Part shown: positions 2,575 through 63,838 of the stretch, in pieces
Numbering within the stretch: the first letter of the stretch is position 1
Layout: each line of letters starts with the position of its first letter
IMG/VR virus record: IMGVR_UViG_3300028388_003908
Location: 64,001 to 128,000 of that record
Source: a virus
Reading direction: 5' to 3' (one strand)
Length of the DNA stretch: 64,000 nt
The notes under the pieces: model-generated
Told to the model about the DNA's origin: nothing
The model's input: only the letters and a program-made list of their open reading frames with translations
Database searches by the model: none
Translations under genes and position numbers: made by a program

Positions 2575-3570
2575 TCAGTAAAGATCGTCCTCAAAATCAT
2601 AATCAGGATCGAAACCGAAAGTCTCCTCCTCTAGCTCCTCCAATGGGCTTGAATCAAAGATCCGATCCTCAAAATCATCCTCATCCTCATCCTCTTCCTC
2701 AAAAATATCTTCAAGAGGATCAATGCCCATGTCTGCGTCATACTCCATCTCATAAGGATAGTCTGGCTCGTACTCCTCATAAAATGTCTCGTCATGCAGT
2801 TTGCGCTCGCTGTCGGTCATAAACAGAGGCTCATCATCCTCTAGATCGAATTCTGCAACATCTGCATCGCCTAGATCATCCACGATAAGATCTGAGAGGT
2901 CGCCTTGAAATCTCTCGTCCTCAGGAAGATCAGCCTCAAGCTCCTCGAGGTCGAAGATAGGACCGTAATAAGCGCGTCTGCTTGAGCGCGCCTTCTTGCT
3001 CGCCTTGTCTAAGATCTCCTCTTGCTCCTCCTCAAGAGCTTTCACCTTAGCCTCAAGCTCTTCTAGCTCGTCCTCGTTCTCCTCGTAATCCTCTGACTGC
3101 ATCGCCTTAGCGCGATTCTTCACCACGTCCTTGTTGATCTCGGTTTGACGGTCGAACTCCTCGGCAGCTTCAGGATGTTCTTCCTTCCACTTCTTGAACT
3201 CTTCCTGACCTTTAGGTCCTGAATGAAAGCGAGCATAGCGAGGAATCATCATAGAGAAGATGCCGAGATCGTCAACGTAACCTTGACCGCCTTCGTATGA
3301 ACCCTCGCCCTCGTAATCGTCATCAAGATCAAGATAATCAACATAATCTTGAGCGTTGCCGGGACCGACAAGATCGAGACCTTGATCATATCCCGAGTTA
3401 ACCTGCACGGTGCTGTCTGCCAAGAAATCAACAGCCTCTCTTGAGCCGTAGTCTCTTCTCATTTGTAGAGGTTGGGTCAGAGCGATCTTCTTGCTGGCGA
3501 CCTTAGACGCGAGATCACCCCTTTGATCCTTCTTAAATTCGTTTGCGATCTTACTAAAAATATCAGACAT
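2575..3570 (-). CDS. Highly acidic protein with major-capsid-like N-terminus; candidate internal head protein
   Basis: D/E-rich; residues 32-43 TQPLQMRRDYGS match MCP TQPLRLRRDYTS; KVAS, KIAL, RYAR, KKAR, RRAY motifs. Confidence 0.7.
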   Translation of the reverse strand: MSDIFSKIANEFKKDQRGDLASKVASKKIALTQPLQMRRDYGSREAVDFLADSTVQVNSGYDQGLDLVGPGNAQDYVDYLDLDDDYEGEGSYEGGQGYVDDLGIFSMMIPRYARFHSGPKGQEEFKKWKEEHPEAAEEFDRQTEINKDVVKNRAKAMQSEDYEENEDELEELEAKVKALEEEQEEILDKASKKARSSRRAYYGPIFDLEELEADLPEDERFQGDLSDLIVDDLGDADVAEFDLEDDEPLFMTDSERKLHDETFYEEYEPDYPYEMEYDADMGIDPLEDIFEEEDEDEDDFEDRIFDSSPLEELEEETFGFDPDYDFEDDLY

Positions 3571-3615
3571 AAAACACCTCTGCGGATTGCGGGTTAGGTT
3601 TTATATCTCTCATAT

Positions 3616-3628
3616 ATAAAGCGTTTAT
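3616..3628. promoter_or_regulatory. Putative bidirectional late promoter (TAA-N4-TTTAT on both strands)
   Basis: ATAAAGCGTTTAT near-palindrome between divergent genes. Confidence 0.55.
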
Positions 3629-3637
3629 CACGTCTCT

Positions 3638-4618
3638 ATGAAAATGATTAAGAGAGGAGATCTTATGCGTAGAATCGCTAAAGCGGATGTTAATCCGATA
3701 CGTCAAGGTTCTCAGTTTTCATGTGTGAGCGCGTCTACCTGTATGGCGTTAAATGCTGTAGGTGTTCAGTGCTCTGAGGAAGACGTAAACAAGGTGATTG
3801 GCGCAAAGCCCATGCAGGGTGCGCGTTGGGAAGAGGTGCTAGCCTGCGCTCAATACTTTGGTTGTAGAGCAACCTTGACCACCCCTGCGACCTTGACTCA
3901 AGTTAAAGCGTGGACAGATCAAGGGAAGCCTGTACTGATCGCTTGGAATCCGGAAGGACGCGATTGGTCACACGCGAGCTTGATCTTTGACGTGACCGGA
4001 GAGAAAGGGGATTATGTGGTTCACGTTGCCGACCCTAATATCCCCAACCCCGATAAGACGACCCGAGAGGTCTCGGAAGACGAATTCTACTCTAAATGGT
4101 TTGAGAAGTGGCCTAACTATCTAGTGCGTAGACCTGCGCTTATGATCGAGCGCGAGATTGACCCTCAAGGCAGACAGATCATGGCGAGCCTTGATAGGGA
4201 ATCTAGGGTCAAGAGTCATAAGCACAACACCAAAAAGGAAGTTAAGGATTCTTACGAGGAGCAAAAGAAGAACTTTGGAAAAGAATGGGCAAAGTATGAA
4301 GGGGCTATGACACCTGAAGGACTTAATCAAGATCGCATTAATAAGAACTTAGGTAAAAAGCCTTCAGGTGGAGGTTTATCTCCTCTCGATAGTCTCGGTA
4401 AAGGTAAAAGCAAGCCTTCAGGAGGAGGTTTGTCCCCTCTTGATAGTCTCGGTAAAGGTAAAAGCAAGCCTTCGGGTGGGGGTTTGTCCCCTCTTGATAG
4501 ACTCGCTTCAGATGACGAGATATTTGATGATCTAGAAATCTACGCAGACGAGCACATGGCGGACCACAGAATCGCGTCATTAAAGCGCTACGCAATCCGG
4601 AAGATGATGGGTCGCTAA
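3638..4618 (+). CDS. Papain-like (C39-family) cysteine peptidase with repeat tail (likely start 3665)
   Basis: Q-x4-C (RQGSQFSC), WSHAS, VADPN catalytic pattern; AGGAG RBS before 3665. Confidence 0.8.
   Translation: MKMIKRGDLMRRIAKADVNPIRQGSQFSCVSASTCMALNAVGVQCSEEDVNKVIGAKPMQGARWEEVLACAQYFGCRATLTTPATLTQVKAWTDQGKPVLIAWNPEGRDWSHASLIFDVTGEKGDYVVHVADPNIPNPDKTTREVSEDEFYSKWFEKWPNYLVRRPALMIEREIDPQGRQIMASLDRESRVKSHKHNTKKEVKDSYEEQKKNFGKEWAKYEGAMTPEGLNQDRINKNLGKKPSGGGLSPLDSLGKGKSKPSGGGLSPLDSLGKGKSKPSGGGLSPLDRLASDDEIFDDLEIYADEHMADHRIASLKRYAIRKMMGR
4351..4500 (+). repeat. 54-bp coding tandem repeat, about 3 copies
   Basis: KPSGGGLSPLD(SLGKGKS) x3. Confidence 0.9.
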
Positions 4619-4914: not shown

Positions 4915-4922
4915 ATCTGCTT

Positions 4923-4934
4923 TAACCTCTTTAT
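4923..4934 (+). promoter_or_regulatory. Putative late promoter motif
   Basis: TAACCTCTTTAT upstream of ORF 4971. Confidence 0.5.
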
Positions 4935-4970
4935 CGTTAACGCTTATTATTATCTTAAAGAGAGGTCGCT

Positions 4971-5477
4971 ATGTCGAGATACGCAAAAGAAAAATATCCT
5001 TGGGACGAGTGCATTAAGGATCAGCTAGAGCAATATGGAGATCAAGAGGTTGCGGAGAAGGTCTGCGGTAAGATCAAAGCACAATCCCAATCTAAGCCCG
5101 CTTCAAGGATTGCCTCTCGCTATCTTCAATCGTCCCGTATGAAGAGTCTTATGATGGAGATAGACGATTCTGACGAGGCTTGGGACTATCTGCATGATAG
5201 TCCAATAGATCGTAGAACTAAAGCGCTTACTTTTATCCGTGCTCTCAGAAGTAGCGTAAATCTGAACAGAGAGCAGGAGACAGCGGTTGCAATTGCCCTA
5301 GATGCGCTCACATACGTCTCTGGCGGTGCAGAGCCTTCAGACATCATCCCCGACAAAGCCCGTAAGATGATACGTCATCTCGCGTATAGAAATGAGCGCA
5401 AGTTGATGACGAGACTGCCTGCCTTACCTGCTGGCATTGTCTATAAAGACGAGATCCGCAGATTGTTCGGTTCATAA
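4971..5477 (+). CDS. Hypothetical protein, candidate head cargo
   Basis: MSRYA start, small N-terminal Cys module, RIASRYL tag. Confidence 0.65.
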   Translation: MSRYAKEKYPWDECIKDQLEQYGDQEVAEKVCGKIKAQSQSKPASRIASRYLQSSRMKSLMMEIDDSDEAWDYLHDSPIDRRTKALTFIRALRSSVNLNREQETAVAIALDALTYVSGGAEPSDIIPDKARKMIRHLAYRNERKLMTRLPALPAGIVYKDEIRRLFGS

Positions 5478-5522
5478 AAAAAGAGCCTCTGTCTAACGTC
5501 CTAGGCAGAGGCTCTTTTTAAA
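5478..5522. terminator. Bidirectional intrinsic terminator
   Basis: A-tract, GAGCCTCTGTCTA..TAGGCAGAGGGCTC stem, T-tract, between convergent genes. Confidence 0.75.
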
Positions 5523-7328: not shown

Positions 7329-7329
7329 A

Positions 7330-8274
7330 TCAACCTAAATACTTAGAGGCTACTCTGACCGGATTTGATCGGATCTCTTGCATCTCAAAATTACCGTTCT
7401 CGTCTCCGTGACCGTAGCGATAAATCTCAAAAGAGCATACCGCAGGTCCGGAAAATCTCTTCTCAAAACCCGCATAACCACAGCAATCTGGAAACAGATA
7501 AAGATACATCTTACGCTCTATCGGATCAAACACCGTGTGAGAGCTTGTGTAAAGATTAGACCTGCGCGAGACGTTGAAAGGATCATCAGGATTTCTGAGA
7601 CGGTCGCCATAGATACTAGGGGCTAAGTCTTGCACCTTTTGAATCTGTCTTATGCGCTTCTGCGCTCTGCGCTTTCTCTCATGGGAAGAATCTCGATTGA
7701 CACCATACTGATAGCCTGTATCAGGATTCCAAACACCATGGTTTGTGCGAACGTGGGTCTTGTCCGATCTCAGCTTTCTAACGTGAAGATCGCCTTCTTC
7801 CCCCTCTAGTACGCCTTTCAAGGTGCGCTCGATCCCATACGTCTCATAACCATCTGAGAGCAGATTATGCCCCAACACACCCTTGTTAGTGGAAGCCTTC
7901 CTGACCGCTTCATCTAAGGTAGTGCTCGATAGTATCTCAAGCATCAAGTTACCGTCCTTATAGCTATCTCTAGCTAGGATTCGGGACAAATTCTCCATGC
8001 CCTCATCATCGGGGTCGTATTCATCCTTCTTCTTTGAGGGGCGGTCCTTCTCGTCATCTAAGACCATCAGAGCGCTGTTGACGAGAGAGATACCGTACTC
8101 GTTAATACCCTCAATCCAACCCGTATCAACATCCTGAAAATATAGGATCTCAACCCCGTTGACGCGGTCGTGATACACCTTAATGTCGGGGTCATAATTG
8201 CGATCTCTGTTCTTAAACAGGACCACCTTGCCCTCACATGGTGTCGCAGAGATTGTGCAAGCCTTTTTGTCCAT
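7330..8274 (-). CDS. Ntn-hydrolase (C45/choloylglycine-hydrolase-like)
   Basis: C6-T...KNRD, EGINEYGI, RTNH, SSHER; C-terminal RVASKYL tag. Confidence 0.8.
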   Translation of the reverse strand: MDKKACTISATPCEGKVVLFKNRDRNYDPDIKVYHDRVNGVEILYFQDVDTGWIEGINEYGISLVNSALMVLDDEKDRPSKKKDEYDPDDEGMENLSRILARDSYKDGNLMLEILSSTTLDEAVRKASTNKGVLGHNLLSDGYETYGIERTLKGVLEGEEGDLHVRKLRSDKTHVRTNHGVWNPDTGYQYGVNRDSSHERKRRAQKRIRQIQKVQDLAPSIYGDRLRNPDDPFNVSRRSNLYTSSHTVFDPIERKMYLYLFPDCCGYAGFEKRFSGPAVCSFEIYRYGHGDENGNFEMQEIRSNPVRVASKYLG

Positions 8275-17956: not shown

Positions 17957-19276
17957 TTATGACCTCTTTCTTTGACGTAGAAGATAAAGATTCGTCTCAT
18001 GTGCGTTAGCAATAGACATAATAAAATCATCAAGTCCTAGAGACATACCGCCATTATCTTTTATCATATCGTAGACGCGCTTTAAGATGGGCTGTATGCG
18101 CTCCTCTGCGATAAGAGCGCGTGTAATAGGATCGGTAGCGTCATTGTGGATCAAGACCTGAATCGACTGCTGAGCTTGAGGCACCGGCGCAACCGCTACA
18201 GGACCGTATTCCCCTACAATCTTCTCCGCTAAGGTGTCGATCTCGTCCTCTAAGGACTCATAGAGACGCTCCATCAGCTGATGATCCCCATAAGAGGATA
18301 GTCCTTTAACCTGCCAATGTGAGGTCCAATGGGACCAATGCACAGCGCGCAGTACAGCCAAGAGCGTCTGCATGATCTCTAGCTTCACGTCAGCGGAGGC
18401 ATATCGGATTTTATTAGAGGAAGCCTTCTTAGAACGAACCTTAAAGAACTCCTTAGACCCGTTGTGTGAGAGATTTCCTTGTCGATCAATATCGTAGTAA
18501 CCCATGTCATTTACCCCTATATCAAGCGCCTTGCGCGAGCGTCTGTTCTTCTGTCTTACGGTAGAGACACCACCGCCCTCGTATCTTTTAAATCTGTTCA
18601 AGTGCTTACGCCTCTTTTGATTGTAGCGCTTGATCCTTGAGCGATTTTTCAGATAGTAGCGTCTTCTCTTTGTCTTGAGTTTGGTCTTGTTCTTAAGACG
18701 GTTTTTAATGCGCCATTTTTTGTACTCTCTGCGAGCCTGACCCTTCTGCTTACGCTGTCTTTTTGAAGGGATTTTTACCGAGATAAACGCGCTCTTAAAG
18801 AGATCTCCGTTCTCGTCTACGTCATAGATAAAATCCTCGTCTTCAAGATAAGGATCTAATACCTCACCCATGAGCGCGTCTAAAGCTACTCTGCGCTTCA
18901 ATCCTGTAGAGGTAGACTGATCTATATAAGGATGACCATACTGATCTCCGGGTAAACCACTAGAGCGAGGTCGCTGATGTAGAGGCTTACCGTCAGGCTG
19001 ATTTGGTATCGCGTTAGGATTGGGAGCTTTGGAGTAAGACGTAGAAGCACCCGATGAATCCGAAGGTGTATTCGATACAGGAGGTCCCGCCCTCTGCTCT
19101 GTCCTGCCTTCTGGATGACCTGAAGGTAGGGGCAATACCCGATCTCTTTTAGGCTGACCGTCTGCGTAATCCTCTCTACTTGGAGAAGGCGCCGGCGTGT
19201 TCTCTCTAGAATCATTTACCCATGTACGAACGCCACTAAGCTCTTGAACAGGTTGACTATGACCCATAGTGTTCAC
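17957..19276 (-). CDS. Polyprotein-like: Pro-rich, acidic and very basic segments plus C-terminal Dps/ferritin-like domain
   Basis: SHWQVKG...DHQLMERLYE...IDTLAEKI ferroxidase-type pattern; K/R-rich stretch. Confidence 0.75.
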   Translation of the reverse strand: MNTMGHSQPVQELSGVRTWVNDSRENTPAPSPSREDYADGQPKRDRVLPLPSGHPEGRTEQRAGPPVSNTPSDSSGASTSYSKAPNPNAIPNQPDGKPLHQRPRSSGLPGDQYGHPYIDQSTSTGLKRRVALDALMGEVLDPYLEDEDFIYDVDENGDLFKSAFISVKIPSKRQRKQKGQARREYKKWRIKNRLKNKTKLKTKRRRYYLKNRSRIKRYNQKRRKHLNRFKRYEGGGVSTVRQKNRRSRKALDIGVNDMGYYDIDRQGNLSHNGSKEFFKVRSKKASSNKIRYASADVKLEIMQTLLAVLRAVHWSHWTSHWQVKGLSSYGDHQLMERLYESLEDEIDTLAEKIVGEYGPVAVAPVPQAQQSIQVLIHNDATDPITRALIAEERIQPILKRVYDMIKDNGGMSLGLDDFIMSIANAHETNLYLLRQRKRS

Positions 19277-43400: not shown

Positions 43401-45204
43401 TGCCGTTAAAGTCCTGAAACTGAACGGTGACGGTCTCTTCTACAGGAACCCCGCCCTCGATACGGGCGTCAGAGATAAGCTCGCTTCCTGATGGGAAGTT
43501 CACATCAACAACAGCGAGATCGGTGCCCTTGCCGGTGTAGCGTACACCATAAAGATTGCTCGTACCTCTAGTGACGCGATAAGAACCTACCCCGCTACGG
43601 TCCGCGACAACAGCGGTAAGCTCATAGCCGCCACCATTAACCACAGCCTCTGTCTGTAACAGGTTGTAGTAGAACGTAGCGAAAACCTTATGACCGGCAG
43701 GAACAGGTCTAGCCAAGACGATAGATGAATCTTGAGGATTAACCCTAGCGACCGCAACGTCGGAGCGCTCAAGAGCGTCTGCCAACGTGTAGCCTGTCTT
43801 AACCTGCACAAGATCGGTGCGTGAGGTGGGAGTGCCAGTCCCCGTACCATCAACAGGCTGTGCAGGTAGCTTAAACGTGTTTGCTACGATTCTGCCGTTG
43901 ATCACATGAGCAGAACACTCAGCAAGGAACATACGGTTATCCATATTTGAAGGGATAACCTTTGTTGTTGGGAAGCTAGAGCCCTCAACAGCGGTAGGCA
44001 GAGTAGCGCTACCCCAAAGGATCTTGTCGTCCTTGAGAACCCAATTTACGCCCTCGATGTATGTTGTGGCAGGTGAATTACCTGTCGCTACATCAGAGAC
44101 TCTAGTGACCTCTCTTACACCCCTAGCAGGAATATAATCGAACTGATCCTTGAAAGGATTAAAGGCATAATCAACGGTGAGCGTAGAGCCAACCTTAGGC
44201 GCCTCACTAAGAGTGATCGCACCGGTAGCACCATCTACAGAGAGAGGTGTGACGCTCACGCCATCTACCAACACAGACACATCGGAGACGTTCGTGGTCA
44301 CGATACCAGAGCCGGTACCATCGGTAATAGGATTGTAGTTGGTGTGGAAGATGGTCTTACGCGCAGAACCCGTCTGACCTTGGAAGATCCCGAGCGCGTC
44401 ATTTGCAGTACCGCCTCCAACCACAATCGAACCATCGGCGGTCAACTCGAGGTTGTCTACTCCGAAGTTATCCGTAAAGACGGCTGCCTCTAGACTGCCC
44501 TTATTGGCTGTCGTGTTAACAGCGATCACAGCGCGAGCAAGATTATCCGCTCTGTTGGTGTTAACAAGAGGAAGACTGACGGTCACAGACACGCCATCTA
44601 CAACAAGAGAAAGCGTGTTTGCTCCTGCGGTGAAGCCGTAATCGTCTGTGCTCTTCTTGACAACGCGGAGAGCGGTGCGCTCAGCGGTAATCTGATTGCT
44701 CAGATCCTCACCTACAACCGAGGTATCGTTTCGGTCAAAGAAGTAGGTGAGATAAACGACATCCCCATCCTTAGGCGCTTGCGCGAGAGACACAATACCA
44801 TTGACCCCATCAACAGCGAGCACTACAGCAGGATCGCCATTAATGGTCGCGCTCACAGAGGCGGGACTTGTTGTAGGGGTGCCCGTACCGTCTCCTGTGA
44901 CGATAGGCCACAGCTTGGTTCTAACACGCGCTGAAGCGCCATCAAAATCCCCTAGGCTATAAGAGCCGTCAGGATTAACAGCGAGCACAGCGCGAGCGCT
45001 CATATCCTCTTCAACGATTTGCTGATCTACGGTCGCAGAGCTTCCGCGGACCAAGGTCAATCCGTTAGATTCGATTGTCTCTCTGCCCGTACCGATGAAC
45101 AGAGGAACACGGCCTGAAACGGTCGTGTCAGGTGTCGGTGTTTCAAAAACCGATTGCGTATATACGCCAGGTGGCGCGTAGCCTCCACTAATAGCCATGG
45201 TCAA
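40417..45204 (-). CDS. Giant contractile tail sheath protein (1595 aa)
   Basis: N-terminal YAPPGVY, FVNGA, C-terminal YRPMFPLLYIQFTF typical of sheaths; large beta-rich insertions. Confidence 0.88.
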   Translation of the reverse strand: MTMAISGGYAPPGVYTQSVFETPTPDTTVSGRVPLFIGTGRETIESNGLTLVRGSSATVDQQIVEEDMSARAVLAVNPDGSYSLGDFDGASARVRTKLWPIVTGDGTGTPTTSPASVSATINGDPAVVLAVDGVNGIVSLAQAPKDGDVVYLTYFFDRNDTSVVGEDLSNQITAERTALRVVKKSTDDYGFTAGANTLSLVVDGVSVTVSLPLVNTNRADNLARAVIAVNTTANKGSLEAAVFTDNFGVDNLELTADGSIVVGGGTANDALGIFQGQTGSARKTIFHTNYNPITDGTGSGIVTTNVSDVSVLVDGVSVTPLSVDGATGAITLSEAPKVGSTLTVDYAFNPFKDQFDYIPARGVREVTRVSDVATGNSPATTYIEGVNWVLKDDKILWGSATLPTAVEGSSFPTTKVIPSNMDNRMFLAECSAHVINGRIVANTFKLPAQPVDGTGTGTPTSRTDLVQVKTGYTLADALERSDVAVARVNPQDSSIVLARPVPAGHKVFATFYYNLLQTEAVVNGGGYELTAVVADRSGVGSYRVTRGTSNLYGVRYTGKGTDLAVVDVNFPSGSELISDARIEGGVPVEETVTVQFQDFNGTPALYTTPGFGPYLLGSLSFEMDIDSTTLNGIDLDLSINKATIVGAPLDYTVASNGTTLDLDGTLLLEVDGQALSVNVSNPAGDVSTLVNAINVASQSVEASYTAMSALGSDSVTIVAGDHDELSVSYVGITGAGLVSRTDVTVTIPNASYTAAELAQEIQDQLQAVFDGVISDDGAGTTSLEVTADSIGRMVFTLTDVAAADIYGYIEFVTSVDDLAQVIGVDVDIADGSQSKFGILPVADFVSTDTSDGNNQFLRDRLILRSRFVAGARYVSLTRNTIEVVSGGDLAEACGLVAGTVATSAPLGRSLDILLTLDMGWDETSGSLAGVTLYDGTGTESANNLLSLVVNGQSHNIDLLDGNADGTTRSAQQIADLIDSVIGTTSVVNGNLIHAHLPVSVNAYIEVGEGSANDRFSLTAGDTFTTSAVSASAFSSALNSHLAQGGQLALRAFMFSTDIQSVSALQGDFVTTYGITYLTEDVAGRSYVTFESLNVGIDSNITFSSSTGVDEIGSGLGINAGDSVVGEAPYQGFVVTSDNPAGSGSAGTSVLSATGADGVVGQTYVDSVTGLRLTVLARDGGQRYPTGANATLTFVSSKTILTNSTLPVKVIPGVSLIVENTSGVTVGETVYVETFANAGDIDVNREPSIGSTYYLDIVRNKSVFGTAVFTRISDVIAEFGDISPQNSLTMAAYYAFVNGASAIALKQVPLLEGETELTTAQILASITESEGEILTGLSPSIIVPLVPANDAILTELSRHCDIQSSLRYRSERTAIVGFPAGTQPKEAQRLASITKNSRVRLVYPDIVSSTITNVQGVSQTYLLDGRYLAVALASATTAGTIDVATPWTSLQVLGFNTLSRNLDAVDANQTANSGVTVLQQRGGQIVVRHGLTTDMTSALTKTPTVIQIADEVHLRARNLTNDYIGQKFVPAVINQIEGRVNEMFRRLVAEQIINSFTGVSVAQDPEDPTGILIEAYYRPMFPLLYIQFTFNVRSAV

Positions 45205-47079: not shown

Positions 47080-47375
47080 TTATGGTTGAGAGAAGACGCT
47101 TACCCGACCCATAGAGATTGTCACATCAATAGCAAAGTTCTTCTCAAGTTCCCCCCATGAATATGGAACCTTATCATAATCAAAATGAGCTATACCTACT
47201 ACGCTGACACAGATCTAGGATTCACGCGCTCTCCGAGATTATTAATCTCTCCTGCGACCTGCTGGCTTAAACCTCTAAGATCCACCATACGACCTGCGGT
47301 GCGACCCATGCCTTGCTCAAGACGTGCTACGCGCTGTTGTAACTCACGGATCATTTCACTTGCTGTTCTTCTCAT
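47080..47375 (-). pseudogene. MRRTASE-leader gene interrupted by a frameshift near 47200
   Basis: Leader frame stops at 47199; the -1 frame continues VGIAHFDYDKVPYSWGELEKNF to 47080. Confidence 0.5.
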
Positions 47376-47435
47376 GGGGAGATCCTTTCTCATGTTGGCA
47401 TGATTGCTCTCTCAGAGCGCTCATAAATGAAAAAA
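47316..47435 (-). repeat. Promoter-RBS-leader cassette, copy 1
   Basis: Similar to 48294-48417 over about 120 bp (e.g. GCTGTTCTTCTCATG, GATCCTTTCTC, GCATGATTGCTCTCTCAGAGC, ATAAATGAAAAAA). Confidence 0.85.
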
Positions 47436-47710: not shown

Positions 47711-48085
47711 ATGCAAGAGGATTTAAAGGATTTGCACATGAGTGAATGGGTCGTCTACGTCATACAGAGTCAACAACCACGCAAAACAGCTTCCGGAAAG
47801 CCTGCGGAAGGATTCTTCTATGTCGGCTGTACCACCGATGTAGAGCGCAGACTAAGACAGCATAATGGCGAGATCAAAGGAGGCGCGAAATACACATCTA
47901 AGTATCGCCCTTGGAAGCTCATGTGTACTTATGGTACATACGCTAATCGTTCAGAAGCGATGAAGGCGGAGCGCGCTCTCAAAAAAAAGAGAGGGCGCCA
48001 CCGCCTTCATTGGACACCAGAAGAATCAAAATGGTGTCGAGGCAGAGAACCTAGAGATTTACTTAAAAGTGGTACACAGTCTTAG
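47711..48085 (+). CDS. SLX1-like GIY-YIG nuclease
   Basis: WVVYVI, YVGCTTDVERRLRQHNGEIKGGAKYT..YRPW. Confidence 0.88.
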   Translation: MQEDLKDLHMSEWVVYVIQSQQPRKTASGKPAEGFFYVGCTTDVERRLRQHNGEIKGGAKYTSKYRPWKLMCTYGTYANRSEAMKAERALKKKRGRHRLHWTPEESKWCRGREPRDLLKSGTQS

Positions 48086-48353
48086 TACCCAAAGATTCAG
48101 CCACCATCTTGATAAAAGCTCTCGCATCTCCACGATACTCTTTACCATTCCTGTTCAGAGCAACCTCAGCACCGCGACCAAAGGTAGCAAATGCGTTACC
48201 TTTTAGGACAGCTTTCAGTTCATTAAAATTATTGATCTTAATCATATCCCCGTCTTCAGCTATAAGGATGAAAGATTCCCCTGCGGTCTTACCCTCAAGT
48301 TGTGCGATACGGGTTTCAAGATCACGAATTACTTCACTAGCTGTTCTTCTCAT
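48063..48353 (-). CDS. MRRTASE-leader hypothetical protein
   Basis: MRRTASEVIRDLETRIAQLEGKTAG then unrelated payload. Confidence 0.7.
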   Translation of the reverse strand: MRRTASEVIRDLETRIAQLEGKTAGESFILIAEDGDMIKINNFNELKAVLKGNAFATFGRGAEVALNRNGKEYRGDARAFIKMVAESLGTKTVYHF

Positions 48354-48417: not shown

Positions 48418-48645
48418 TCAAAGAGACCGATAGTACTCAGAGAGCAGTTGCTTGGCCATGTTCAAACCTACATCGAACTTGCGCGAAATCGCCTTCAAGA
48501 TCAGATCATCTGACATACCTATATCCTTCAAAGATCTGATCTCTCTGTTCACCTTAAAAGGTGGTAAAAAGAAACCTCGATCCCTTTCCAAATAAGCGTT
48601 CGCCACTCTTCGGGCGCTCTCTTTAAGCATAGCTAATCTTCTCAT
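48418..48645 (-). CDS. Small hypothetical protein with RRVANAYL tag
   Basis: MRRLA start, ARRVANAYLER. Confidence 0.6.
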   Translation of the reverse strand: MRRLAMLKESARRVANAYLERDRGFFLPPFKVNREIRSLKDIGMSDDLILKAISRKFDVGLNMAKQLLSEYYRSL

Positions 48646-51241: not shown

Positions 51242-51925
51242 TTAGACGACAAGACTAAAGGTAACGTGGTTGCTACCTTCCTCAAAGATCCAAACGTCCG
51301 CCCTCATTCTTACTAGAGAAGGATGTGGGATAAGGATCTCTACATATCCTGCATCTCTGTAGAGCTTAACTCCTTTGACCGCTTTCAAGAGCGTTCTGTA
51401 AACAAGTCTTGGACGCATATTGACCCTAACGGAACCTCGCACAATGTCGGCAGAGATGCCTGCATCTTCCAAGATCTGCAAAAGAGCAAGATTCTCTTTA
51501 CTAACTGTAGAAGGTGCTCGTCTATCAGTAATGAAATCCTGATCTAACCCATCGGGGTCCTCAAGACCAATTCATCTTGAAGTCTCCCAAGGGTCGATAG
51601 CCTCCTTCTCAAGGCGCGCTACGCGCATCTCAAGCTCACGGATAACCTCACCGGCTGTTCTTCCCATATTTGCTGTTCTTAGTAGATTCTTGGGGGTGTT
51701 GCGCTTCAAGAAATTCTGAACGGTTTGGGCAGCCTTTGATCCGAGATCATTAGTCACAATGCGACCACCCTCCCAATGAGCGATATTTGACCCGCCCATC
51801 CATACGCCATCTAGACGCATACCGTTAGTGAGTAGCTTCTTAGACTCTGCGGGTTTTTGATCAATAAATGCGTTGATCACCATCTTATCCTTCTCGGATA
51901 GACGTAGCTCTGCGATTCGTCTCAT
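51242..51925 (-). CDS. Cargo-type polyprotein interrupted by an in-frame TGA at 51572-51574
   Basis: MRRIA start, internal RTANMGRTAGEVIRELEMRVARLE; frame stays open after TGA into ORF 51242-51481. Confidence 0.5.
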
Positions 51926-51999
51926 AATAGATAACCTTTCAATCTGTCGTGTGCATGAGCGTACTATAAGCAAAAAAAAAGACCAAAGGAGAGACCGAC

Positions 52000-55817: not shown

Positions 55818-58232
55818 CTAAGCGCGACCTTTGCCGTAACCGATAAATCTCGCTACGTCCGAGACAGCTCCGTGAGCATGAGAAATCTTGTCCTCAACCC
55901 AATCGTCAAGCTCACCTTCAAAATCGACATGATCTAGTAGGAACTCTGCCATCTCACGCATCTCCTCTAGATTCTGTCGTGACATATATGAGCCCTCATG
56001 CCCTCCGGATAAGATTTTTCTGCGCGCTACGCGCTGTACTGCTTTTTTCGTCATTTGGTGACTAACCGCATCATAGAAGATACCCATCGCTTTCCTCCAG
56101 TTTTTTGGCTTGTATCTCTTGAGACTTACAAAGAAAGGTCGATCTGAGGTCCACCGTAGGATAGACTGATTATCTACGACACGATTCTTCCGTTTAAATA
56201 GCTTTGTCTCGTCTAACAATCTTGAGTAGAACTCTATGTCGTCTAGAGCGTGGATGCTGATCAGATCCGTATCAGCCCCTCCCTCTCTAGCATATTCCCT
56301 CTTTAGCTCTATCTCTTTATCCTTCAGATGTTGTGTGTATTGCTCGTCTTTCTTAGAGAAAGGATTTCCAGCCCGTCCTATCTCTATTTCAGCATTGTTC
56401 GCCAGATGTACTTGGGTAGCGTGAACAAGCTCATGCGCCACTATATCTTCAAACTCGTTTAAATAGTTTAGAGGTAGCTCTCCCGAGAACTTAGGTAAGA
56501 CGTTAATGTAGATAGAATGATAATTGTCCCACTTGTAAGAACCCCTACTTCTCATCGCCTTTGGCGTAGTCTGTAGAAGCACAAATAAGAGACCATACTC
56601 CTCGTCCTTAATGACAACCTGACGTGAATTCCTGCTGTAATACGACTCTCTGTTGAGAGATTTAACCGCCTCCTCGTAGTCCTCTCTCACGAGTGCAGGC
56701 ACATATCGTGCGGGGCTTGTCGTCCATCTTTTTAGCTCTTTAAGAACCTCATATTGTAAATCACCAATCGAACCAATTAGCGCCCGAGACCCATTAGGAT
56801 TTGCAAAGATTTCCGCAGGGTCCAAGATGTCTATCTTACTCTTAATCTTATCAAAAAGAGGGTAGCCGAGATCTGCGTCTTTAAGTTGCTTTTCTATCTC
56901 TTGCGAGGATCGCTGAAGACTATTGATTTGGAAAATAACCTCTTCCTCATCGTACTCGCCTCTACGAATACCGATAGGCAGAGTTTCTATCTCGTCAAGA
57001 GAAAATTCTAAGCCGTCTACAGCGTCTTGAGTAAGACCGCCCTTTGCGCTGTCCTCCTCTTCTTTTTGTAAGACGTGTTGAGCTACCAAGCCTTGAGCGA
57101 TCTTGGTTACTCGATCTACAAGACGTTGAGGAGGCTTGATGAGACCTGCATTACGAAGCGCAGATGAATTATTAGCAAACCCGCTATCGTAAGGTATTAC
57201 GCGAGCAGACCCGGATCCGCTGTCATGCACATAACCTAAATCTGCGCGCTCGGCAGGTCTACGACCTACGGATTCCCCTCGATCTAGATTGCGATATTTC
57301 AGATTAGGGGAATCGGGAGATGGACGACCTATGTTTCTCGCGGTGTCTCCGGAAGGTAAAGAACTCGCGCCCGCAGAGGTCTCATCTGCGCGCCCTACAT
57401 CGCTCCCATTTGAAAAAGAGGAAAGCTGATCGGGAGGTGTGACCTGACGATAAAAATCCGCCTTCTTGTCTTTGATCATCTCTTTAGCCTCTTCGTCAAA
57501 GGTAGGTGTATTCACAGGCTTCTGCCCTCGGTGCTTAGCTTCTTCCCTACGCTTCTTGCGAGCGAGCGTAGCGCGCTGTTCTTTAGTCATGTCGTATGCC
57601 TTTTCTCTCGGCATACATTTAAGAGGCTTACTACCATTACCCGTAACCTCTGCCCATTCCTTCTCACTAGAGACAGCGCAGGGACCTACAATATCTCCCG
57701 CCTCGTAAACCTTATCCTCTTTGTCCTCTCTCTTGACCGTATGCTTTATAGGCGTAATCGCTACCCAATCACCCCATGTTGCGCGCTCGTCTGGCTTACC
57801 TCCCCCATGTCCCGCGAACCAAGTATCTAGACCACCCATACCGGTGTTCTTCATCTTCTTGTCATCTCGGGCTATCAAGTACCTGTCCGTCAGTCTCTCC
57901 CCTGCGCTCTTGTAGCAATTCTTGTAAGGTCTACATGACGCCTTCTCAGAAAAGCCCATCTCGTCACAGGTCTTGGATTCACAATGCTCCTTATCCCATT
58001 TACGAGGTGTCTTGTACTCAGAGCTTTCCTTCTTCCACTTACCGCCTAGACGCTTGTATTGAGCGAGCGCCCAACCGTTCGCGTATGCAGACGGGAAAGT
58101 TCTAAAGCCTTTACCATCATTAACCGGATTTACGGATTCCCCGTTAGCGGTGACGGGCTTATTTGATTCCCCTCTAGCTAGATCTAGGATCTTATCCCAT
58201 AGCTTTGGGTCTGTAGGCACGTTCTTAGACAT
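55818..58232 (-). CDS. 804-aa multi-module polyprotein with HExxH zincin motif
   Basis: FPSAYANGW..YKRLGGKW module, Cys modules, AHELVHATQ, C-terminal helical module; KSAG, KKAD, KKAV linkers. Confidence 0.65.
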   Translation of the reverse strand: MSKNVPTDPKLWDKILDLARGESNKPVTANGESVNPVNDGKGFRTFPSAYANGWALAQYKRLGGKWKKESSEYKTPRKWDKEHCESKTCDEMGFSEKASCRPYKNCYKSAGERLTDRYLIARDDKKMKNTGMGGLDTWFAGHGGGKPDERATWGDWVAITPIKHTVKREDKEDKVYEAGDIVGPCAVSSEKEWAEVTGNGSKPLKCMPREKAYDMTKEQRATLARKKRREEAKHRGQKPVNTPTFDEEAKEMIKDKKADFYRQVTPPDQLSSFSNGSDVGRADETSAGASSLPSGDTARNIGRPSPDSPNLKYRNLDRGESVGRRPAERADLGYVHDSGSGSARVIPYDSGFANNSSALRNAGLIKPPQRLVDRVTKIAQGLVAQHVLQKEEEDSAKGGLTQDAVDGLEFSLDEIETLPIGIRRGEYDEEEVIFQINSLQRSSQEIEKQLKDADLGYPLFDKIKSKIDILDPAEIFANPNGSRALIGSIGDLQYEVLKELKRWTTSPARYVPALVREDYEEAVKSLNRESYYSRNSRQVVIKDEEYGLLFVLLQTTPKAMRSRGSYKWDNYHSIYINVLPKFSGELPLNYLNEFEDIVAHELVHATQVHLANNAEIEIGRAGNPFSKKDEQYTQHLKDKEIELKREYAREGGADTDLISIHALDDIEFYSRLLDETKLFKRKNRVVDNQSILRWTSDRPFFVSLKRYKPKNWRKAMGIFYDAVSHQMTKKAVQRVARRKILSGGHEGSYMSRQNLEEMREMAEFLLDHVDFEGELDDWVEDKISHAHGAVSDVARFIGYGKGRA

Positions 58233-59419: not shown

Positions 59420-60298
59420 TTAGCGAGTGACGCTGAGACGAGCAAGACCGCGAGGGTTGTACGCGCCAATACCGAGGTTCTCAAACACAGAGAAGCCGAT
59501 AGTACGAGCCTTAGGGTCGTCCGCAGAGAGGACGGTAAGCTCGGTACGAACGGGGATACGACCAAACATCTCAGGCTCACAGCAGACATACACGGTGCCC
59601 GCAGGAACAAGACGGCTGGTGATAACCTGTGCGCCCCAAAGAGTAGCCTGAAGACCAGTCTTGAGAAGGGCTGCTTGGCTCTCAATGTCGAGAATGTCAC
59701 GACCAAACTTACGGATGTCAGCGTAGTCACGAGCGTTCATGAACACGCGAGCAACGCGAAGGTCATGGCTCTCAACGAGGCTGTATGCGTCAGCAAGCAC
59801 AGAGCCGTTAAGAGGCGCGATCACCTGAATGTCAGAGTTGGTCTGACCAGGTACGCTATCAAAGCCCTGCGTTGCCACAGCGTTAAGGATAGCGAACACG
59901 CGCTCGTCCTCGGCAGCCTGAATCTGGCTACGAGCGAGATCCTGAGCGCGCTCGATGAGATCGAAGCGTCTCTCCTTGATCTGTGTCAAGGGGATCTCAG
60001 GGTTTGATGCGATCTCAAAGAGAGGGAAGATCACACGGCGGGGCTTGGTGATGCTGAGGATGTTCTGTCCCTCTTCACCAACCACAAACGCGGTTACGTC
60101 AGGGTCCTTGTCGTAGATAGGAAGCGCGCCATCGGGCAACTGCTCTACGAGGAAGGTCTTACGACCCACAGAGGTATAGTCTCTGCGGAGGCGTAGGGGT
60201 TGTGTCATTGAGGCAGCCAACTTCGCACGACCCGCAGGGGTCTTGATGTAGTCGGCAATAATCTTGCTCTTTACGCTATTATCAACATTGTTGCTCAT
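59420..60298 (-). CDS. Major capsid protein (HK97 fold)
   Basis: Position after protease-scaffold-decoration genes; EQLPDGALPIYD, IQAAEDERVF, LWGAQVITSRLVPAGTVY, GFSVFENLGIGAYNPRG. Confidence 0.85.
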   Translation of the reverse strand: MSNNVDNSVKSKIIADYIKTPAGRAKLAASMTQPLRLRRDYTSVGRKTFLVEQLPDGALPIYDKDPDVTAFVVGEEGQNILSITKPRRVIFPLFEIASNPEIPLTQIKERRFDLIERAQDLARSQIQAAEDERVFAILNAVATQGFDSVPGQTNSDIQVIAPLNGSVLADAYSLVESHDLRVARVFMNARDYADIRKFGRDILDIESQAALLKTGLQATLWGAQVITSRLVPAGTVYVCCEPEMFGRIPVRTELTVLSADDPKARTIGFSVFENLGIGAYNPRGLARLSVTR

Positions 60299-60948: not shown

Positions 60949-61088
60949 AGTAATCTCCTATGTTGCTCATACTCCCTGTTTTCAAGGAAGTAGGGTTTTG
61001 TTAAAAGGGAAGTTGTGTAAAGCGCCCCTCTCCATCAAAGGGCTCTGTATATAGCGAGGCTATATAAACGAATCACAAGGATTCCTTA

Positions 61089-62444
61089 TTAGCCGAAGTA
61101 TCTGCTAACGTCAGGTGCGGTCTCCCACAGCTTGCTGAGATCGTCTGCACCGCTTGAAGCCTCACGGCTGATGTTGCCGAGGGTCTTCACAGCAGGCTGA
61201 CGACTAGCGAGACGAGGACGTGCGTGAGCCTTCTTAGAAGCGGTAGGCTCCTCCTCGCTCATCTGAATCTCCTCAGACTCTTCCTCCTCAGTCTCTTCCT
61301 CCTCAGTCTCTTCCTCCTCAGTCTCTTCCTCAGAAGCCTCAAAGATACGAGCGAGCTTAGGATCAACAGACGCCTCCTCGGTTGCGTCTAGACCCATGGT
61401 GTCCTCTGAAGTCTCCTCCTCTGAAGCCTCCTCCTCTGAAGCCTCCTCCTCTGAAGCGCTATGATAGAAGTTAGCCTTCTTGCTATCCATGTCAGCTAGG
61501 ATAGAAGCGAGTACGCCCTCCTCTGCGCTCTCCTCGTCTGCTTCCTCCTCCTCTGAAAGGATCTCAGCGAGTACGCTGGCGAGACGGTTTATACCACGGC
61601 TCTCGCTACGGGGACGCCAAGAAGCCTGCTTAGGCTGCTCAACGCTCTCCTCCATCAACTCCTCTTCATCGTCAGAGTATCCGGTAGCCTTTGCCACAGC
61701 GTCATCAGCGAGCTTGCGAACCTGTGAAGCAAGACGAGCGTTAGCGAGCTTTAAGGTATCAACCTGCTCTTGAAGCATCTCAGCTAGACGGTCGGTGTGT
61801 CTGCGAGACGCCATGTGATGAGTTCCCATGTAGCCAGACTCATGCTCATCTGCCATGTGATAATCAGACTCATGCTCGTCTGCCATGTGATAATCAGACT
61901 CATGCTCGTCTGCCATGAGATCAAGATCATCAATGATCTCGTCATCATCAGCGTACATATCAGCGTTCACGTTACCAGGGCCGCGATCTGTGACGTGATA
62001 GCCGGTAGCTACCTCCATCTCGTCATGCGCCATGTCCTCCTCAGAAAGACGTGCCAGCTTGTTTTCGATTTGACGATTAGGGAGATCCATGAAGCGAAGC
62101 GCGAGATCCTCAATATCGTTCTGTGAAGCTCTGCGACCAAGCTGAGCCTCTGCGATACGGATGCACTTGGCAGCCTTGCGCTCCATAGCCTGACGAAGAC
62201 CAAAGTCCTCTGCAAGCTCATCGGTCACGGCAGGGTGATCAGGCTCCCAACCGTAAGAAGCAGGAGGAGGACCTGAACGGTAAGGACCCTCATGTACTGC
62301 CTCACCGAAATCTGAATCAATTGCGTAATCGTCAATCTCAGGAAGAGGCTTAGTAGCAGGATGCCCGAAAGCATCGAAACCGAGATTATCATAACCAGGA
62401 AGGGCGCTGTTCGCCCTGCGACCTCTACGGGGGAAACGTGACAT
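61089..62444 (-). CDS. Prohead scaffold-like protein
   Basis: Acidic, coiled-coil, many (K/R)xA motifs; between protease and capsid genes. Confidence 0.65.
   Translation of the reverse strand: MSRFPRRGRRANSALPGYDNLGFDAFGHPATKPLPEIDDYAIDSDFGEAVHEGPYRSGPPPASYGWEPDHPAVTDELAEDFGLRQAMERKAAKCIRIAEAQLGRRASQNDIEDLALRFMDLPNRQIENKLARLSEEDMAHDEMEVATGYHVTDRGPGNVNADMYADDDEIIDDLDLMADEHESDYHMADEHESDYHMADEHESGYMGTHHMASRRHTDRLAEMLQEQVDTLKLANARLASQVRKLADDAVAKATGYSDDEEELMEESVEQPKQASWRPRSESRGINRLASVLAEILSEEEEADEESAEEGVLASILADMDSKKANFYHSASEEEASEEEASEEETSEDTMGLDATEEASVDPKLARIFEASEEETEEEETEEEETEEEESEEIQMSEEEPTASKKAHARPRLASRQPAVKTLGNISREASSGADDLSKLWETAPDVSRYFG
61270..61460 (-). repeat. 15-bp coding repeats (EEETE, SEEEA)
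   Basis: TCTTCCTCCTCAG(TC) x3 and CCTCCTCTGAAG x3. Confidence 0.85.
61833..61918 (-). repeat. 30-bp coding repeat x3
   Basis: MADEHESDYH x2 plus MADEHESGY. Confidence 0.9.
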
Positions 62445-62476
62445 AGCTTGTCAACCTTTCGTAGCGTGTGGGGCTT

Positions 62477-63838
62477 TCAAGCCCTTGTGGAGATTAACTT
62501 GGATAATCTTACCAAGCGTGATTTGTCTTGATCAGAGAGTTCCGCTCCATTATACATGGTCGCCCTCTGTAAAAATGCCTCGACAGAAGCATATCTATCA
62601 GCCCTGCCCAAGAGCTTGGCGATACGATAGATTTTCTCAGACATCCGGACGTTGTAATGGTCATTAACAAGACGGATGTTGTCGACCACCTCGGAATCGC
62701 TCTTGGCGATACGGATGGCTGATTCAAGATTGCGGGCATAGACCTTACGGAGCGCTTGACCCTCTTTAATAATGGTGTCGTTCTCGCTCACGGTAGATTC
62801 GCTTATGGCGGGCTTGAGTGCCTCGTCCATAAGACCGCTCTTGATCTCTTGCTCAATCTTCTTACGGATACGATTGATGACCGCGTCTGTAACCGCTGTC
62901 TCTACCTCGTCAATAATTGACTTGGGACCAGCAGGTTCGGCGGGCTTCTCATCTCCATCGTCATCATCAAATCCGAAAGCTAGACGATGAGACGCGCTCT
63001 TTTGAATCCATTTCTCGGGTACATCAGATGATTCTTCTGATGAAGGGATCTCAAGTATGTTACGAGCTACAGCACCCTTAAAGGCTGGCGTCTCTACCCA
63101 AGAAGCCTCGATAAAGGTAACCCCACCTGTCTCTCCTGCGGTGTGATGACCACAAAGCTCTGCGACACGGTGCTTATTGCCTTGCTCGTCATAGAAGGTA
63201 TTACCCTTCTCATACTTGATGTGCTGACACATCTCGGTCTCATCGGCTGCGACATGACCACATTTCGTGCAGATAGTAAAATCGACACTACAGCCCATGC
63301 TCATGGCGTTGGTCTTACCGCTCAGAATATCCTCGACAAGACCCTCATGCTTACGATCTGTCGCCACAAGGATATCCACATAAAGCGATTCCCCTACGTC
63401 ACGGAGAACAGCGTCAATAATGCGCCCCTTTGAAAGCTCCTCAACCTGAACGTGCTCTACAAAGTTATGCGCCCCGACAAAGGTCTTGTAGGACTTTTGA
63501 ATGACTTCTCTTGACCAGCTATCGAGATTATTGTTGATGTACTGATCGGTCTTAGGACTAATACGATAATCCGCATACTTGCGATGTATCTGCTGACCGT
63601 CTTGTGTAAGCGAGCCTGTCTTAGTCCCGGGAGGAGTCACAGCGTCTACAGAGCAGACAATCGTGGCGTGAGTAAGCAGGAAACGGTCGGGCGTGAAGGC
63701 CTCCCCTAGTATATCCTCTGCTTGCTTACGCAAGGATTTATTGACCGTAGCCTTAGAAGCTACGCGCACTTTATCCCAATGATTACCTCTCACGTCAGGC
63801 GTGACAACCCCTGCGCGAGCGTATCTTAGAAATGCCAT
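62477..63838 (-). CDS. Candidate prohead maturation protease with Zn-finger insert (start 63838)
   Basis: FVEH, GRIIDA, MSMGC, CTKCG..C.H, FIEASWVETPAF resemble HK97/herpes-type protease layout; GGAGG RBS. Confidence 0.65.
   Translation of the reverse strand: MAFLRYARAGVVTPDVRGNHWDKVRVASKATVNKSLRKQAEDILGEAFTPDRFLLTHATIVCSVDAVTPPGTKTGSLTQDGQQIHRKYADYRISPKTDQYINNNLDSWSREVIQKSYKTFVGAHNFVEHVQVEELSKGRIIDAVLRDVGESLYVDILVATDRKHEGLVEDILSGKTNAMSMGCSVDFTICTKCGHVAADETEMCQHIKYEKGNTFYDEQGNKHRVAELCGHHTAGETGGVTFIEASWVETPAFKGAVARNILEIPSSEESSDVPEKWIQKSASHRLAFGFDDDDGDEKPAEPAGPKSIIDEVETAVTDAVINRIRKKIEQEIKSGLMDEALKPAISESTVSENDTIIKEGQALRKVYARNLESAIRIAKSDSEVVDNIRLVNDHYNVRMSEKIYRIAKLLGRADRYASVEAFLQRATMYNGAELSDQDKSRLVRLSKLISTRA

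Follow-up and report, generated by a model that had tools for sequence, protein, structure and literature searches.

A short peptide motif probably marks the cut sites of a head-maturation protease in a jumbo phage represented by the IMG/VR virus record IMGVR_UViG_3300028388_003908. We analysed a window of 64,000 nucleotides, bases 64001-128000 of a single 143,151-bp contig; coordinates below are in window numbering. The motif is a basic residue, any residue and alanine, followed by serine or sometimes threonine ([KR]-x-A-S), and would be cut between Ala and Ser (Ala|Ser). A scaffold, a 789-amino-acid (aa) protein of the head module and a set of modular proteins are the likely substrates of the protease. 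An earlier reading of the letters alone (the sequence-only reading) had proposed a site with Ala at P1 and a basic residue at P3, and this is by far the best account of the scaffold and protease data, that is, of the 8-11 fold enrichment, two invariant sites and the placement of sites in linkers. We infer cleavage and the enzyme responsible, and the head packaging and injection of proteins that carry a portable tag are a more tentative proposal still; all mechanistic steps are drawn from sequence statistics, conservation and predicted fold.

Protein similarity places the phage among the phage-G-like jumbo phages, as a relative of Bacillus phage G. By capsid protein identity the closest relatives are the uncultured 485-kb phage LR745208 (86%), Tunturiibacter phage Tunturi_5 (46%) and Bacillus phage G (38%, gp27), and cluster-C type mycobacteriophages are more remote ones. 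Relatives were obtained via protein searches, and a megablast of the head region against the phage collection returned no DNA relative. Three proteins of the head module, with the sites conserved in two of them, carry the main evidence:

61089-62444, minus strand: acidic scaffold-like protein of 451 aa, named from gene position and composition
62477-63838, minus strand: head-maturation (prohead) protease, PHROG phrog_18299 (E 2.6e-16)
72639-75008, just outside the window and upstream of the terminase gene: 789-aa head-module open reading frame (ORF)
63755-63766, minus strand: N-tail site of the protease, Arg-Val-Ala-Ser, at the same column in 105 of 120 homologues
63053-63742, minus strand: catalytic core of the protease, residues 33-262, with 3 [KR]-x-A-S vs 14.8 expected (0.2x) in 120 homologues
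62990-63001, minus strand: linker site of the protease, Lys-Ser-Ala-Ser, just past the core, in 71 of 116 homologues
62124-62135, minus strand: invariant scaffold site 1, Arg-Arg-Ala-Ser, P1 Ala106, motif in 92 of 92 aligned homologues
61155-61166, minus strand: invariant scaffold site 2, Arg-Glu-Ala-Ser, P1 Ala429, motif in 92 of 93 aligned homologues
61092-61157, minus strand: conserved 22-residue C-terminal tail of the scaffold, a nearly invariant alignment block

Enrichment of [KR]-x-A-S reached 8-11 fold in the three head-module families of the scaffold, the protease and the 789-aa protein. The 120 listed scaffold homologues, of 128 matches in the public protein collection, contain 790 copies vs 79 expected, with 2-14 copies each. 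The 120 closest protease homologues contain 359 vs 45, and 103 homologues of the 789-aa protein hold 873 vs 83, at shifting positions and with Thr also favoured after Ala. The orthologue of the 789-aa protein in LR745208 is the most motif-rich of all 671 ORFs there. In this genome, scaffold and protease together have 31 [KR]-x-A vs 11.3 expected and 9 [KR]-x-A-S vs 0.9; the scaffold-like protein alone has 18 [KR]-x-A vs 5.4 and 6 [KR]-x-A-[SG] vs 0.7. Every tetrapeptide that the sequence-only reading had named for these two proteins is present.

The protease gene lies between the portal gene and the scaffold and capsid genes. Its product is 453 aa long from the Met at 63838, where the public gene call also begins, and its homologues include the proteases annotated in Tunturi_5 and Gordonia phage Pupper. 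An N-tail precedes the catalytic core, which a disordered linker connects to a helical C-terminal domain. In an AlphaFold model built from 52 sequences, core residues 33-262 are confident (predicted local distance difference test, pLDDT, 85-96), and segments 1-32 and 263-311 have pLDDT<50. Compared using VIA-align, the core matched the proteases of varicella-zoster virus (Z 9.9, root-mean-square deviation 2.6, 113 aligned), pseudorabies virus (Z 9.5), herpes simplex virus 2 (Z 8.1) and human cytomegalovirus (Z 7.6), as well as T4 gp21 (Z 8.9, 126 aligned). T4 gp21 was also the top Foldseek match, though with an E of just 0.012, and a phmmer search of the protease against PDB sequences gave no match. 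The modelled core thus has the herpesvirus assemblin / T4 gp21 fold. Candidate catalytic residues are His129 and Ser180 (453-aa numbering), which are invariant in the 52 sequences, as are other His and Ser residues.

Sites are distributed very unevenly along the protease family. The enrichment of [KR]-x-A-S is greatest in the linker (17x) and the N-tail (16x) and lower in the C-terminal domain (7x), while the core is 5-fold depleted. Site-rich linkers and a site-poor core are as expected of a self-processing protease that must spare itself. Both best-conserved sites fall in the segments with pLDDT<50. The N-tail site, which is conserved in LR745208 and in the close relative L076, is a candidate self-cleavage site that would remove ~27 residues. 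The linker site is a candidate release site between the protease and its C-terminal domain, and a second linker site occurs five residues further on in 48 of 94 homologues.

The scaffold-like protein has no Pfam or PHROG family. It does have hallmarks of a scaffold: its gene adjoins the capsid gene, it is acidic, helical and of low complexity, and it combines many sites with a conserved C-terminal end. Gene position and composition therefore suggest that the 61089-62444 product is the scaffold. The two site counts listed above come from an alignment of 94 sequences of this family, which is only ~40% identical. In an alignment of homologues, Ala106 and Ser107 are invariant, as are Arg427, Ala429 and Ser430. 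Site 2 is shared by Tunturi_5 gp332 and directly precedes the conserved C-terminal tail. Insertions specific to single lineages gain sites as well, in 14 of 14 and 22 of 24 sequences at two insert columns. By analogy with herpesvirus scaffolds (PMC4498786), the tail may be the capsid-binding end left behind by a cut at site 2. A complex prediction of the scaffold tail with the capsid protein scored 0.00, which gives no verdict and is evidence neither way. Many scaffold homologues also carry an EF-hand calcium-binding insert (PF13405, PF13202, PF00036), which is absent from this genome's copy.

Herpesvirus assemblins cut an Ala|Ser bond, with the consensus V/L/I-x-A|S. The herpesvirus protease frees itself from a C-terminal assembly domain at the R-site, and a cut at the M-site near the scaffold C-terminus releases the scaffold from the capsid protein bound there (PMC4498786). 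The phage proteins resemble this system in the core fold (Z 7-10), in a protease that is joined to a C-terminal assembly domain by a linker with a site, as at the R-site, and in a site just before the conserved C-terminal end of the scaffold, as the M-site is. The linker site after the core and the invariant site before the tail match the herpesvirus layout, and we therefore read [KR]-x-A|S as the protease site. The two systems differ in that P3 is basic here and hydrophobic in herpesviruses, that the phage scaffold gene is separate and not nested, and that there are many more sites per scaffold here. Sequence identity is ~10%, the host is bacterial, and cleavage in the phage is a prediction.

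From this layout the following steps can be proposed. Inside the prohead, the protease would trim its own N-tail and, through a cut at the linker site, shed its helical C-terminal domain. It would also cut the scaffold at many sites, including the invariant one just before the C-terminal tail, where the cut would detach the scaffold from the shell, like the herpesvirus M-site cut. The 789-aa protein would also be fragmented. Fusions of a C39-like peptidase, a fusion with a Dps-like domain, an 804-aa mosaic protein and an Ntn-like enzyme are probably further substrates.

The motif counts were also compared among other parts of the genome, in which the head and replication genes are arranged as follows:

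59420-60298, minus strand: major capsid protein, 292 aa, without delta domain, PHROG major head protein (E 1e-50)
between the scaffold-like and capsid genes, minus strand: 210-aa ORF
63838-65976, minus strand: 712-aa ORF
65976-67564, minus strand: three small ORFs
67580-69268, minus strand: portal
69478-71298, minus strand: large terminase
21239: helicase
31769-35355, minus strand: three tandem overlapping DNA methyltransferase-like paralogues of 423, 426 and 400 aa
35398: DnaB
37663: DNA polymerase
40417-45204, minus strand: very large tail sheath homologue

The three-residue form is a weak signal. Genome-wide, [KR]-x-A occurs 448 times vs 384 expected from per-protein shuffles; in the ORFs of 2575-63883 it occurs 208 times vs 170 (z 3.2), and 177 times vs 158 (z 1.7) when scaffold and protease are left out. 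Among all residue pairs, scanned without bias at four spacings, dozens of others deviated more. The Ser-containing form is a real signal, with 65 copies vs 31.3 genome-wide (z 6.1), 34 vs 12.5 within the window and still 25 vs 11.8 (z 4.0) in the window without scaffold and protease. Eleven control patterns were at expectation, among them the reversed motif, a shifted spacing, acidic P3 and Ser, Gly, Thr or Val at P1.

By class, the remaining head module has 72 [KR]-x-A vs 49 and 12 [KR]-x-A-S vs 4.0, and the major capsid protein and its neighbour have 2 vs 4.7. Replication and methylase genes, which occupy the middle of the window, have 31 vs 27.9 and 2 vs 1.8. Large tail proteins have 51 vs 50 and 6 vs 5.1, and all other 114 ORFs have 195 vs 196 and 24 vs 15.3. 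The [KR]-x-A-S excess is located in the head module and in small ORFs of no assigned function, not in the replication or tail genes. The signal is thus the Ser-containing form in a subset of proteins, not a property of the whole genome. The capsid protein lacks [KR]-x-A-S and has a conserved Lys-Leu-Ala-Ala-Ser in its N-arm.

These counts divide the claims of the sequence-only reading. Its contrast with the replication and methylase genes was correct, because the motif is at chance there. Its genome-wide (K/R)-x-A system is weak in the three-residue form and strong in the [KR]-x-A-S form and in the association with module junctions described below. Its proposed comparison of enrichment per protein with the replication genes bears out the scaffold and the protease, while several of the 14 other ORFs it listed are at chance. 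Pooled, these 14 have 66 [KR]-x-A vs 43.8 and 12 [KR]-x-A-S vs 3.4, in a set picked after the motif had been seen. Singly, ORFs 11329 (3 vs 3.5), 55818 (9 vs 9.6), 58310 (1 vs 0.8), 17957 (5 vs 4.2) and 4971 (3 vs 3.0) are not enriched in [KR]-x-A, and in ORFs 8276, 11329 and 58310 the motif is no commoner than chance. In ORFs 24415, 47375, 48063 and 51925 the hits trace to a single leader that these ORFs have in common and that is also conserved as DNA. Two of the listed starts, 3665 and 51925, are Met codons inside ORFs 3638-4618 and 51572-51973, and the ORF given as 47375 is 47199-47393 on the minus strand.

The complete genomes of three relatives have a similarly modest motif excess, with 117 vs 94 copies in LR745208, 82 vs 63 in Tunturi_5 and 78 vs 56 in phage G. 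In LR745208 the excess is borne by the scaffold and the orthologue of the 789-aa protein. In Tunturi_5 it is borne by gp332 (scaffold-like), gp328 ('DNA ejection protein'), gp348 and gp350 ('DarB-like antirestriction protein'), the last two of which adjoin the terminase. In phage G it is borne by gp4 and gp7, between terminase and portal. The names 'DNA ejection protein' and 'DarB-like' are the depositors' own and fit head-packaged proteins, which is not proof. Tunturi_5 is also strongly enriched in [KR]-x-A-A (159 vs 85.5, z 9.6). This could mean that its protease tolerates Ala at P1', or could reflect the composition of a genome with 58% G+C.

Beyond the head genes, the motif is found at the joints of modular proteins, three of which lie in the window:

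3665-4207, plus strand: C39-like (papain-fold) peptidase domain of ORF 3638-4618, likely start Met at 3665
4499-4579, plus strand: C-terminal extension of ORF 3638-4618 with two [KR]-x-A-S (P1 290 and 313), the second resembling the tag
18395-18430, minus strand: two [KR]-x-A-S (P1 285 and 293) in ORF 17957-19276, at the joint of a very basic region and a Dps-like domain
55818-58232, minus strand: 804-aa mosaic of at least five modules

Homology breakpoints were collected from relatives of ORFs 3638, 17957 and 55818. In these proteins, which are mutually related and in which BLAST ends are imprecise, 58 of 104 breakpoints have [KR]-x-A within 6 residues vs 18 expected. After similar contexts were collapsed, the same was true of 48 of 85 distinct junctions vs 14.7 expected. 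Controls with acidic P3, with the reversed motif and with Gly, Leu or Glu at P1 were flat, and Ser is not required at these junctions. An independent set consists of proteins with the last module of ORF 55818. Among 74 representatives less than 50% identical to each other, 52 have [KR]-x-A just upstream of it vs 21.7 expected, much of this excess being one conserved boundary element.

The 804-aa mosaic has homology breakpoints at residues 110, 256, 364 and 740, and all four coincide with [KR]-x-A, whose P1 residues are 110, 258, 362 and 736. Its modules are permuted or stand alone in relatives. The last ~64 residues (55821-56012, minus strand) are a portable GSYMS-type module, which is present in 105 representative protein clusters of 68-2023 aa, either C-terminally or internally.

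The peptidase domain of ORF 3638 matches Pfam Peptidase_C39_2 (PF13529) with 23.0 bits vs a cut-off of 24 (E 1.3e-4), and the Cys and His motifs are conserved in its homologues. In ~30 IMG/VR contigs the domain is 70-90% identical and is followed by unrelated C-terminal modules. The joints between peptidase and module are commonly [KR]-x-A-S or a RVASRYL-type tag, and some homologues terminate in this tag right behind the domain. In ORF 17957, the Dps/ferritin-like domain begins near residue 300 and matches DNA-binding Dps profiles over residues 300-371 (phrog_3636, E 6e-10; phrog_858, E 3.6e-6); it scored 27.6 bits with Pfam DUF5856, below the cut-off of 34.6. The LR745208 orthologue is a stand-alone Dps-like domain. 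Other relatives permute a Pro-rich module, the very basic stretch and the Dps-like domain, and have a site at the same joint or after the Dps-like domain. Modules thus occur in varying order among the relatives of ORFs 55818, 17957 and 3638, as is typical of polyvalent proteins.

Since sites or the tag lie at the ends and module joints of these shuffled proteins, they are probably polyproteins and further protease substrates. The motif between domains, as seen by the sequence-only reading, thus stands for the families of ORFs 3638, 17957 and 55818. Its polyprotein idea is supported for those listed ORFs that have motif-marked module joints, while several others do not rise above chance. It had also named nuclease-like and membrane-active modules as cargo, and none were found.

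The tag is an 11-residue peptide (x-A-S, R-V/I-A-S, R/K-Y-L/I; RVASRYL type) at protein termini and junctions. The form R-[IV]-A-S-[RK]-Y-L, mostly after x-A-S, has six copies in LR745208 and five in this genome: in ORF 4971, at the C-termini of ORF 7330 and of a 101-aa ORF left of the window, and twice in the 712-aa ORF. The copies in the window, a degenerate one and a capsid-like segment are:

5094-5126, plus strand: full 11-residue tag (x-A-S, R-I-A-S, R-Y-L) inside ORF 4971-5477
7333-7356, minus strand: tag at the extreme C-terminus of ORF 7330-8274
48418-48645, minus strand: 75-aa ORF with an N-terminal degenerate tag, R-R-V-A-N-A-Y-L, called from sequence
3415-3555, minus strand: capsid N-arm mimic, the N-terminal 47 residues of the acidic ORF 2575-3570, compared with capsid bases 60143-60268 (minus strand)

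A count over 368 proteins, from this genome and from related loci, gave 15 tags where 0.34 were expected, and 10 of the strict form vs 0.055. Six of the 15 copies end their protein, two lie close to its N-terminus, and the other seven separate modules. A peptide nearly identical to the ORF 4971 tag is found in an unrelated 497-aa protein of LR745208. The copies carry different synonymous codons, and therefore it is the peptide that is conserved and not the DNA; on these grounds an origin of the tag as DNA-level recombination linkers was rejected.

The capsid mimic is 38% identical to the capsid N-arm over 47 residues (BLASTP, E 1e-4 for the pair), and its Lys-Val-Ala-Ser stands at the capsid's Lys-Leu-Ala-Ala. 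The relative L080 bears the same mimic beside its C39-like peptidase gene. This similarity hints at docking inside the shell. The tagged ORF 7330 has no Pfam or PHROG match and no close relative in IMG/VR. In protein Atlas viral clusters matched by it, 10-43% of members have PF03417 or PF02275, which is a lead only to an Ntn-like function. Its Cys6 follows Lys-Lys-Ala. No head protease is needed to make this Cys the N-terminus, because Ntn hydrolases process themselves and so expose their own nucleophile.

Tentatively, these tagged or strung modules, among them unrelated enzymes and DNA-binding modules, might be plug-and-play head cargo, recruited to the prohead via the tag, freed at Ala|Ser and delivered with the DNA, although we consider this doubtful. 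If it were so, packaging into a shell that holds ~500 kb would depend on a signal, the tag, that can be transferred between proteins.

Several observations weigh against the protease reading as a whole or against its extension to cargo. We found no published cut site for the phage G lineage in the literature, and the 2025 phage G paper and the mBio jumbo-capsid paper contain no cut-site data. Only five of 26 [KR]-x-A-S sites that are alignable to LR745208, Tunturi_5 or phage G are conserved (two in the scaffold and one each in the protease, the 712-aa ORF and a 1353-aa protein), and therefore many single sites are chance. The sheath, terminator and helicase have sites that relatives do not share, and single sites in tail, portal-side and replication proteins were set aside as chance on the same mostly negative comparison. 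A-rich Arg and Lys codons after the start codon may be part of the source of the N-terminal excess, and some matches of the R-hydrophobic-A type are, we suspect, coiled-coil heptads. In the 789-aa family, 25% of mapped sites lie in the disordered 36% of the length and most lie in predicted helices; the model of this protein is weak (pTM 0.30), with no structural match in the viral library and no family match. Tags at the extreme C-terminus would, if cut, free 4-6 residues, which fits docking better than processing. The junction counts come from related proteins, as stated above. Neither Pfam nor PHROG gave a family for most candidate cargo ORFs, including most of the 14 listed ones, and their place in the virion is putative.

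We consider it unlikely that the sites are cut by the C39-like peptidase, or by self-processing of polyvalent proteins, possibly after injection. This would agree with the unusual conservation of the peptidase domain (70-90% identity in ~30 contigs), with the many homologues in which [KR]-x-A-S or the tag directly follows that domain and precedes unrelated modules, and with the polyvalent phage proteins with embedded peptidases that have reportedly been proposed before (PMC5512222). However, no sites are stronger or better conserved than those of the scaffold and of the linkers within the head protease itself. Phage G and Tunturi_5, moreover, have no detectable homologue of the C39-like peptidase, yet their protease tails are motif-rich and they have scaffold-like proteins. 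C39 peptidases are known to cut after Gly-Gly and not after Ala. A non-proteolytic motif is an improbable explanation too, be it a docking peptide (for scaffold, shell, portal or chaperone), a flexible linker or a site of basophilic Ser modification, with Arg at -3 of the Ser. Kinases classically recognise patterns such as R-x-x-S, the six tags at the very C-terminus would lose few residues by a cut, and many 789-aa family sites are helical. Yet a protease that processes itself and releases the scaffold would be expected to show full linkers, a depleted core and an invariant site ahead of the scaffold tail, as seen here, and scaffold homologues with 2-14 copies at shifting positions resemble known protease-degraded scaffolds.

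A very unlikely explanation is that outside the scaffold, protease and 789-aa protein the hits reflect chance, composition, start context, heptads and a duplicated leader, and that there is no cargo system. It would be consistent with the [KR]-x-A counts of the window without scaffold and protease (177 vs 158, z 1.7) and of the remaining 114 ORFs (195 vs 196), with the five of 65 [KR]-x-A-S sites that are copies of a paralogous leader, with the conservation of just five of 26 alignable sites, and with the post hoc choice of the 14 listed ORFs. It accounts poorly for the 25 [KR]-x-A-S vs 11.8 (z 4.0) left in the window, for 15 tags vs 0.34 in varied codons, and for motifs at 48 of 85 junctions vs 14.7 with flat controls. 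Cleavage of [KR]-x-A|S by the head-maturation protease is the reading that we prefer.

Protease-processed head proteins are known from several systems. In T4, the gp22 scaffold is degraded at many sites, and the capsid-targeting sequences of the internal proteins IPI-III, which are short and finish with the protease site, bring passengers into the head. The phage described here resembles T4 in a prohead protease of the same fold as gp21, a many-site scaffold and, possibly, short terminal peptides with the presumed protease site. The T4 site, in contrast, ends in Glu (L/I-x-E), and its targeting peptides are N-terminal only, whereas the tag is N-terminal, C-terminal or internal and its role in packaging putative. 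Encapsulin cargo-loading peptides are short, mostly C-terminal and common to unrelated enzymes, and the shell has the HK97 fold. The tag is likewise a short peptide shared by unrelated enzymes of a phage with an HK97-fold shell, but there is no sequence likeness, and binding of the tag to the shell is putative.

The proteases phiKZ gp175 and SPN3US gp245 recognise A/S/G-x-E motifs, and SPN3US prefers Ser at P1' (PMC10052503). These are also head proteases of jumbo phages that act on many head proteins, including inner-body and ejection proteins, through a three-residue motif, with several copies inside propeptides. They differ in Glu at P1, in lineage and in being backed by mass spectrometry, while the motif described here is known from sequence. 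Polyvalent proteins of phages and conjugative elements (Iyer et al. 2017, PMC5512222) reportedly have shuffled modules and embedded peptidases and are proposed to travel in the capsid. A resemblance to these and to head-packaged anti-restriction proteins such as P1 Dar is seen in the 'DarB-like' protein, which is among the most motif-rich of Tunturi_5. As a difference, the joints here have a defined motif that matches the presumed protease site, and a portable 11-residue tag.

Compared with the processed head proteins of T4, phiKZ and herpesviruses, the present system likely combines a basic P3 with an Ala|Ser bond like that of assemblin, and has a portable tag as well. For the lineage of the largest cultivated phage, G, and of many uncultivated huge phages, this would be a concrete rule of where the head protease cuts (P3 basic, P1 Ala, P1' Ser). 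The Ala|Ser bond and the placement of release- and maturation-type sites would add a functional parallel to the known kinship of phage and herpesvirus protease folds. Motif and tag could be used to predict mature ends, to re-annotate polyproteins of metagenomic jumbo phages and to nominate head-packaged enzymes. If packaging is true, the tag would also be a practical handle to load proteins into large capsids.

The paralogous leader is found in a family of small cassettes, where ~21 N-terminal residues (MRRTASE...) precede an unrelated payload:

48063-48353, minus strand: leader-family member
47199-47393, minus strand: leader-family member
24415-24906, minus strand: leader-family member
51572-51973, minus strand: member with the leader near the C-terminus

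Four further copies lie elsewhere in the genome. A stretch of 24 bases is identical in six copies, and upstream of three there is a common promoter-like element, a T-run with CATTTAT. The leader is present in L076, and neither ORF 48063 nor the 24-base core had a match in IMG/VR. A cut after residue 5 of the leader would make little sense as a targeting signal. The idea of a promoter shared with the head genes was rejected: the T-run/CATTTAT element precedes leader cassettes only, and its absence before head genes therefore means that there is no evidence of co-expression. Between two cassettes, on the opposite strand, a GIY-YIG-type nuclease ORF (47711-48085, plus strand; called by sequence motif) looks like a homing-type insert.

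Some further features of the genome were observed. No tRNA genes were found in the window. Ala-Ala dipeptides are depleted three-fold across all ORFs (86 vs 246 expected, z -11), because the DNA word GCNGC, present in each GCN-GCN codon pair, is avoided (111 vs 337-470 expected). Also avoided are CTGCAG (1 vs 26), GCATGC (0 vs 13), GGCC and CCWGG, and the depleted words look like restriction-site avoidance that shapes the proteome. As Ala-Ala is scarce everywhere, the depletion of [KR]-x-A-A was rejected as a sign of protease avoidance. All three methyltransferase paralogues (31769-35355) match one 1229-aa ORF of LR745208. The tail sheath homologue is unusually long, with 1595 aa here, 1665 aa in LR745208 and 1204 aa in Tunturi_5. 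At the edge of the head module, outside the window, a 287-aa ORF (L009:17136-17999, or 78135-78998 in window numbering) scored above the cut-off of PF00211 (E 7e-7), the catalytic domain of adenylate/guanylate cyclases.

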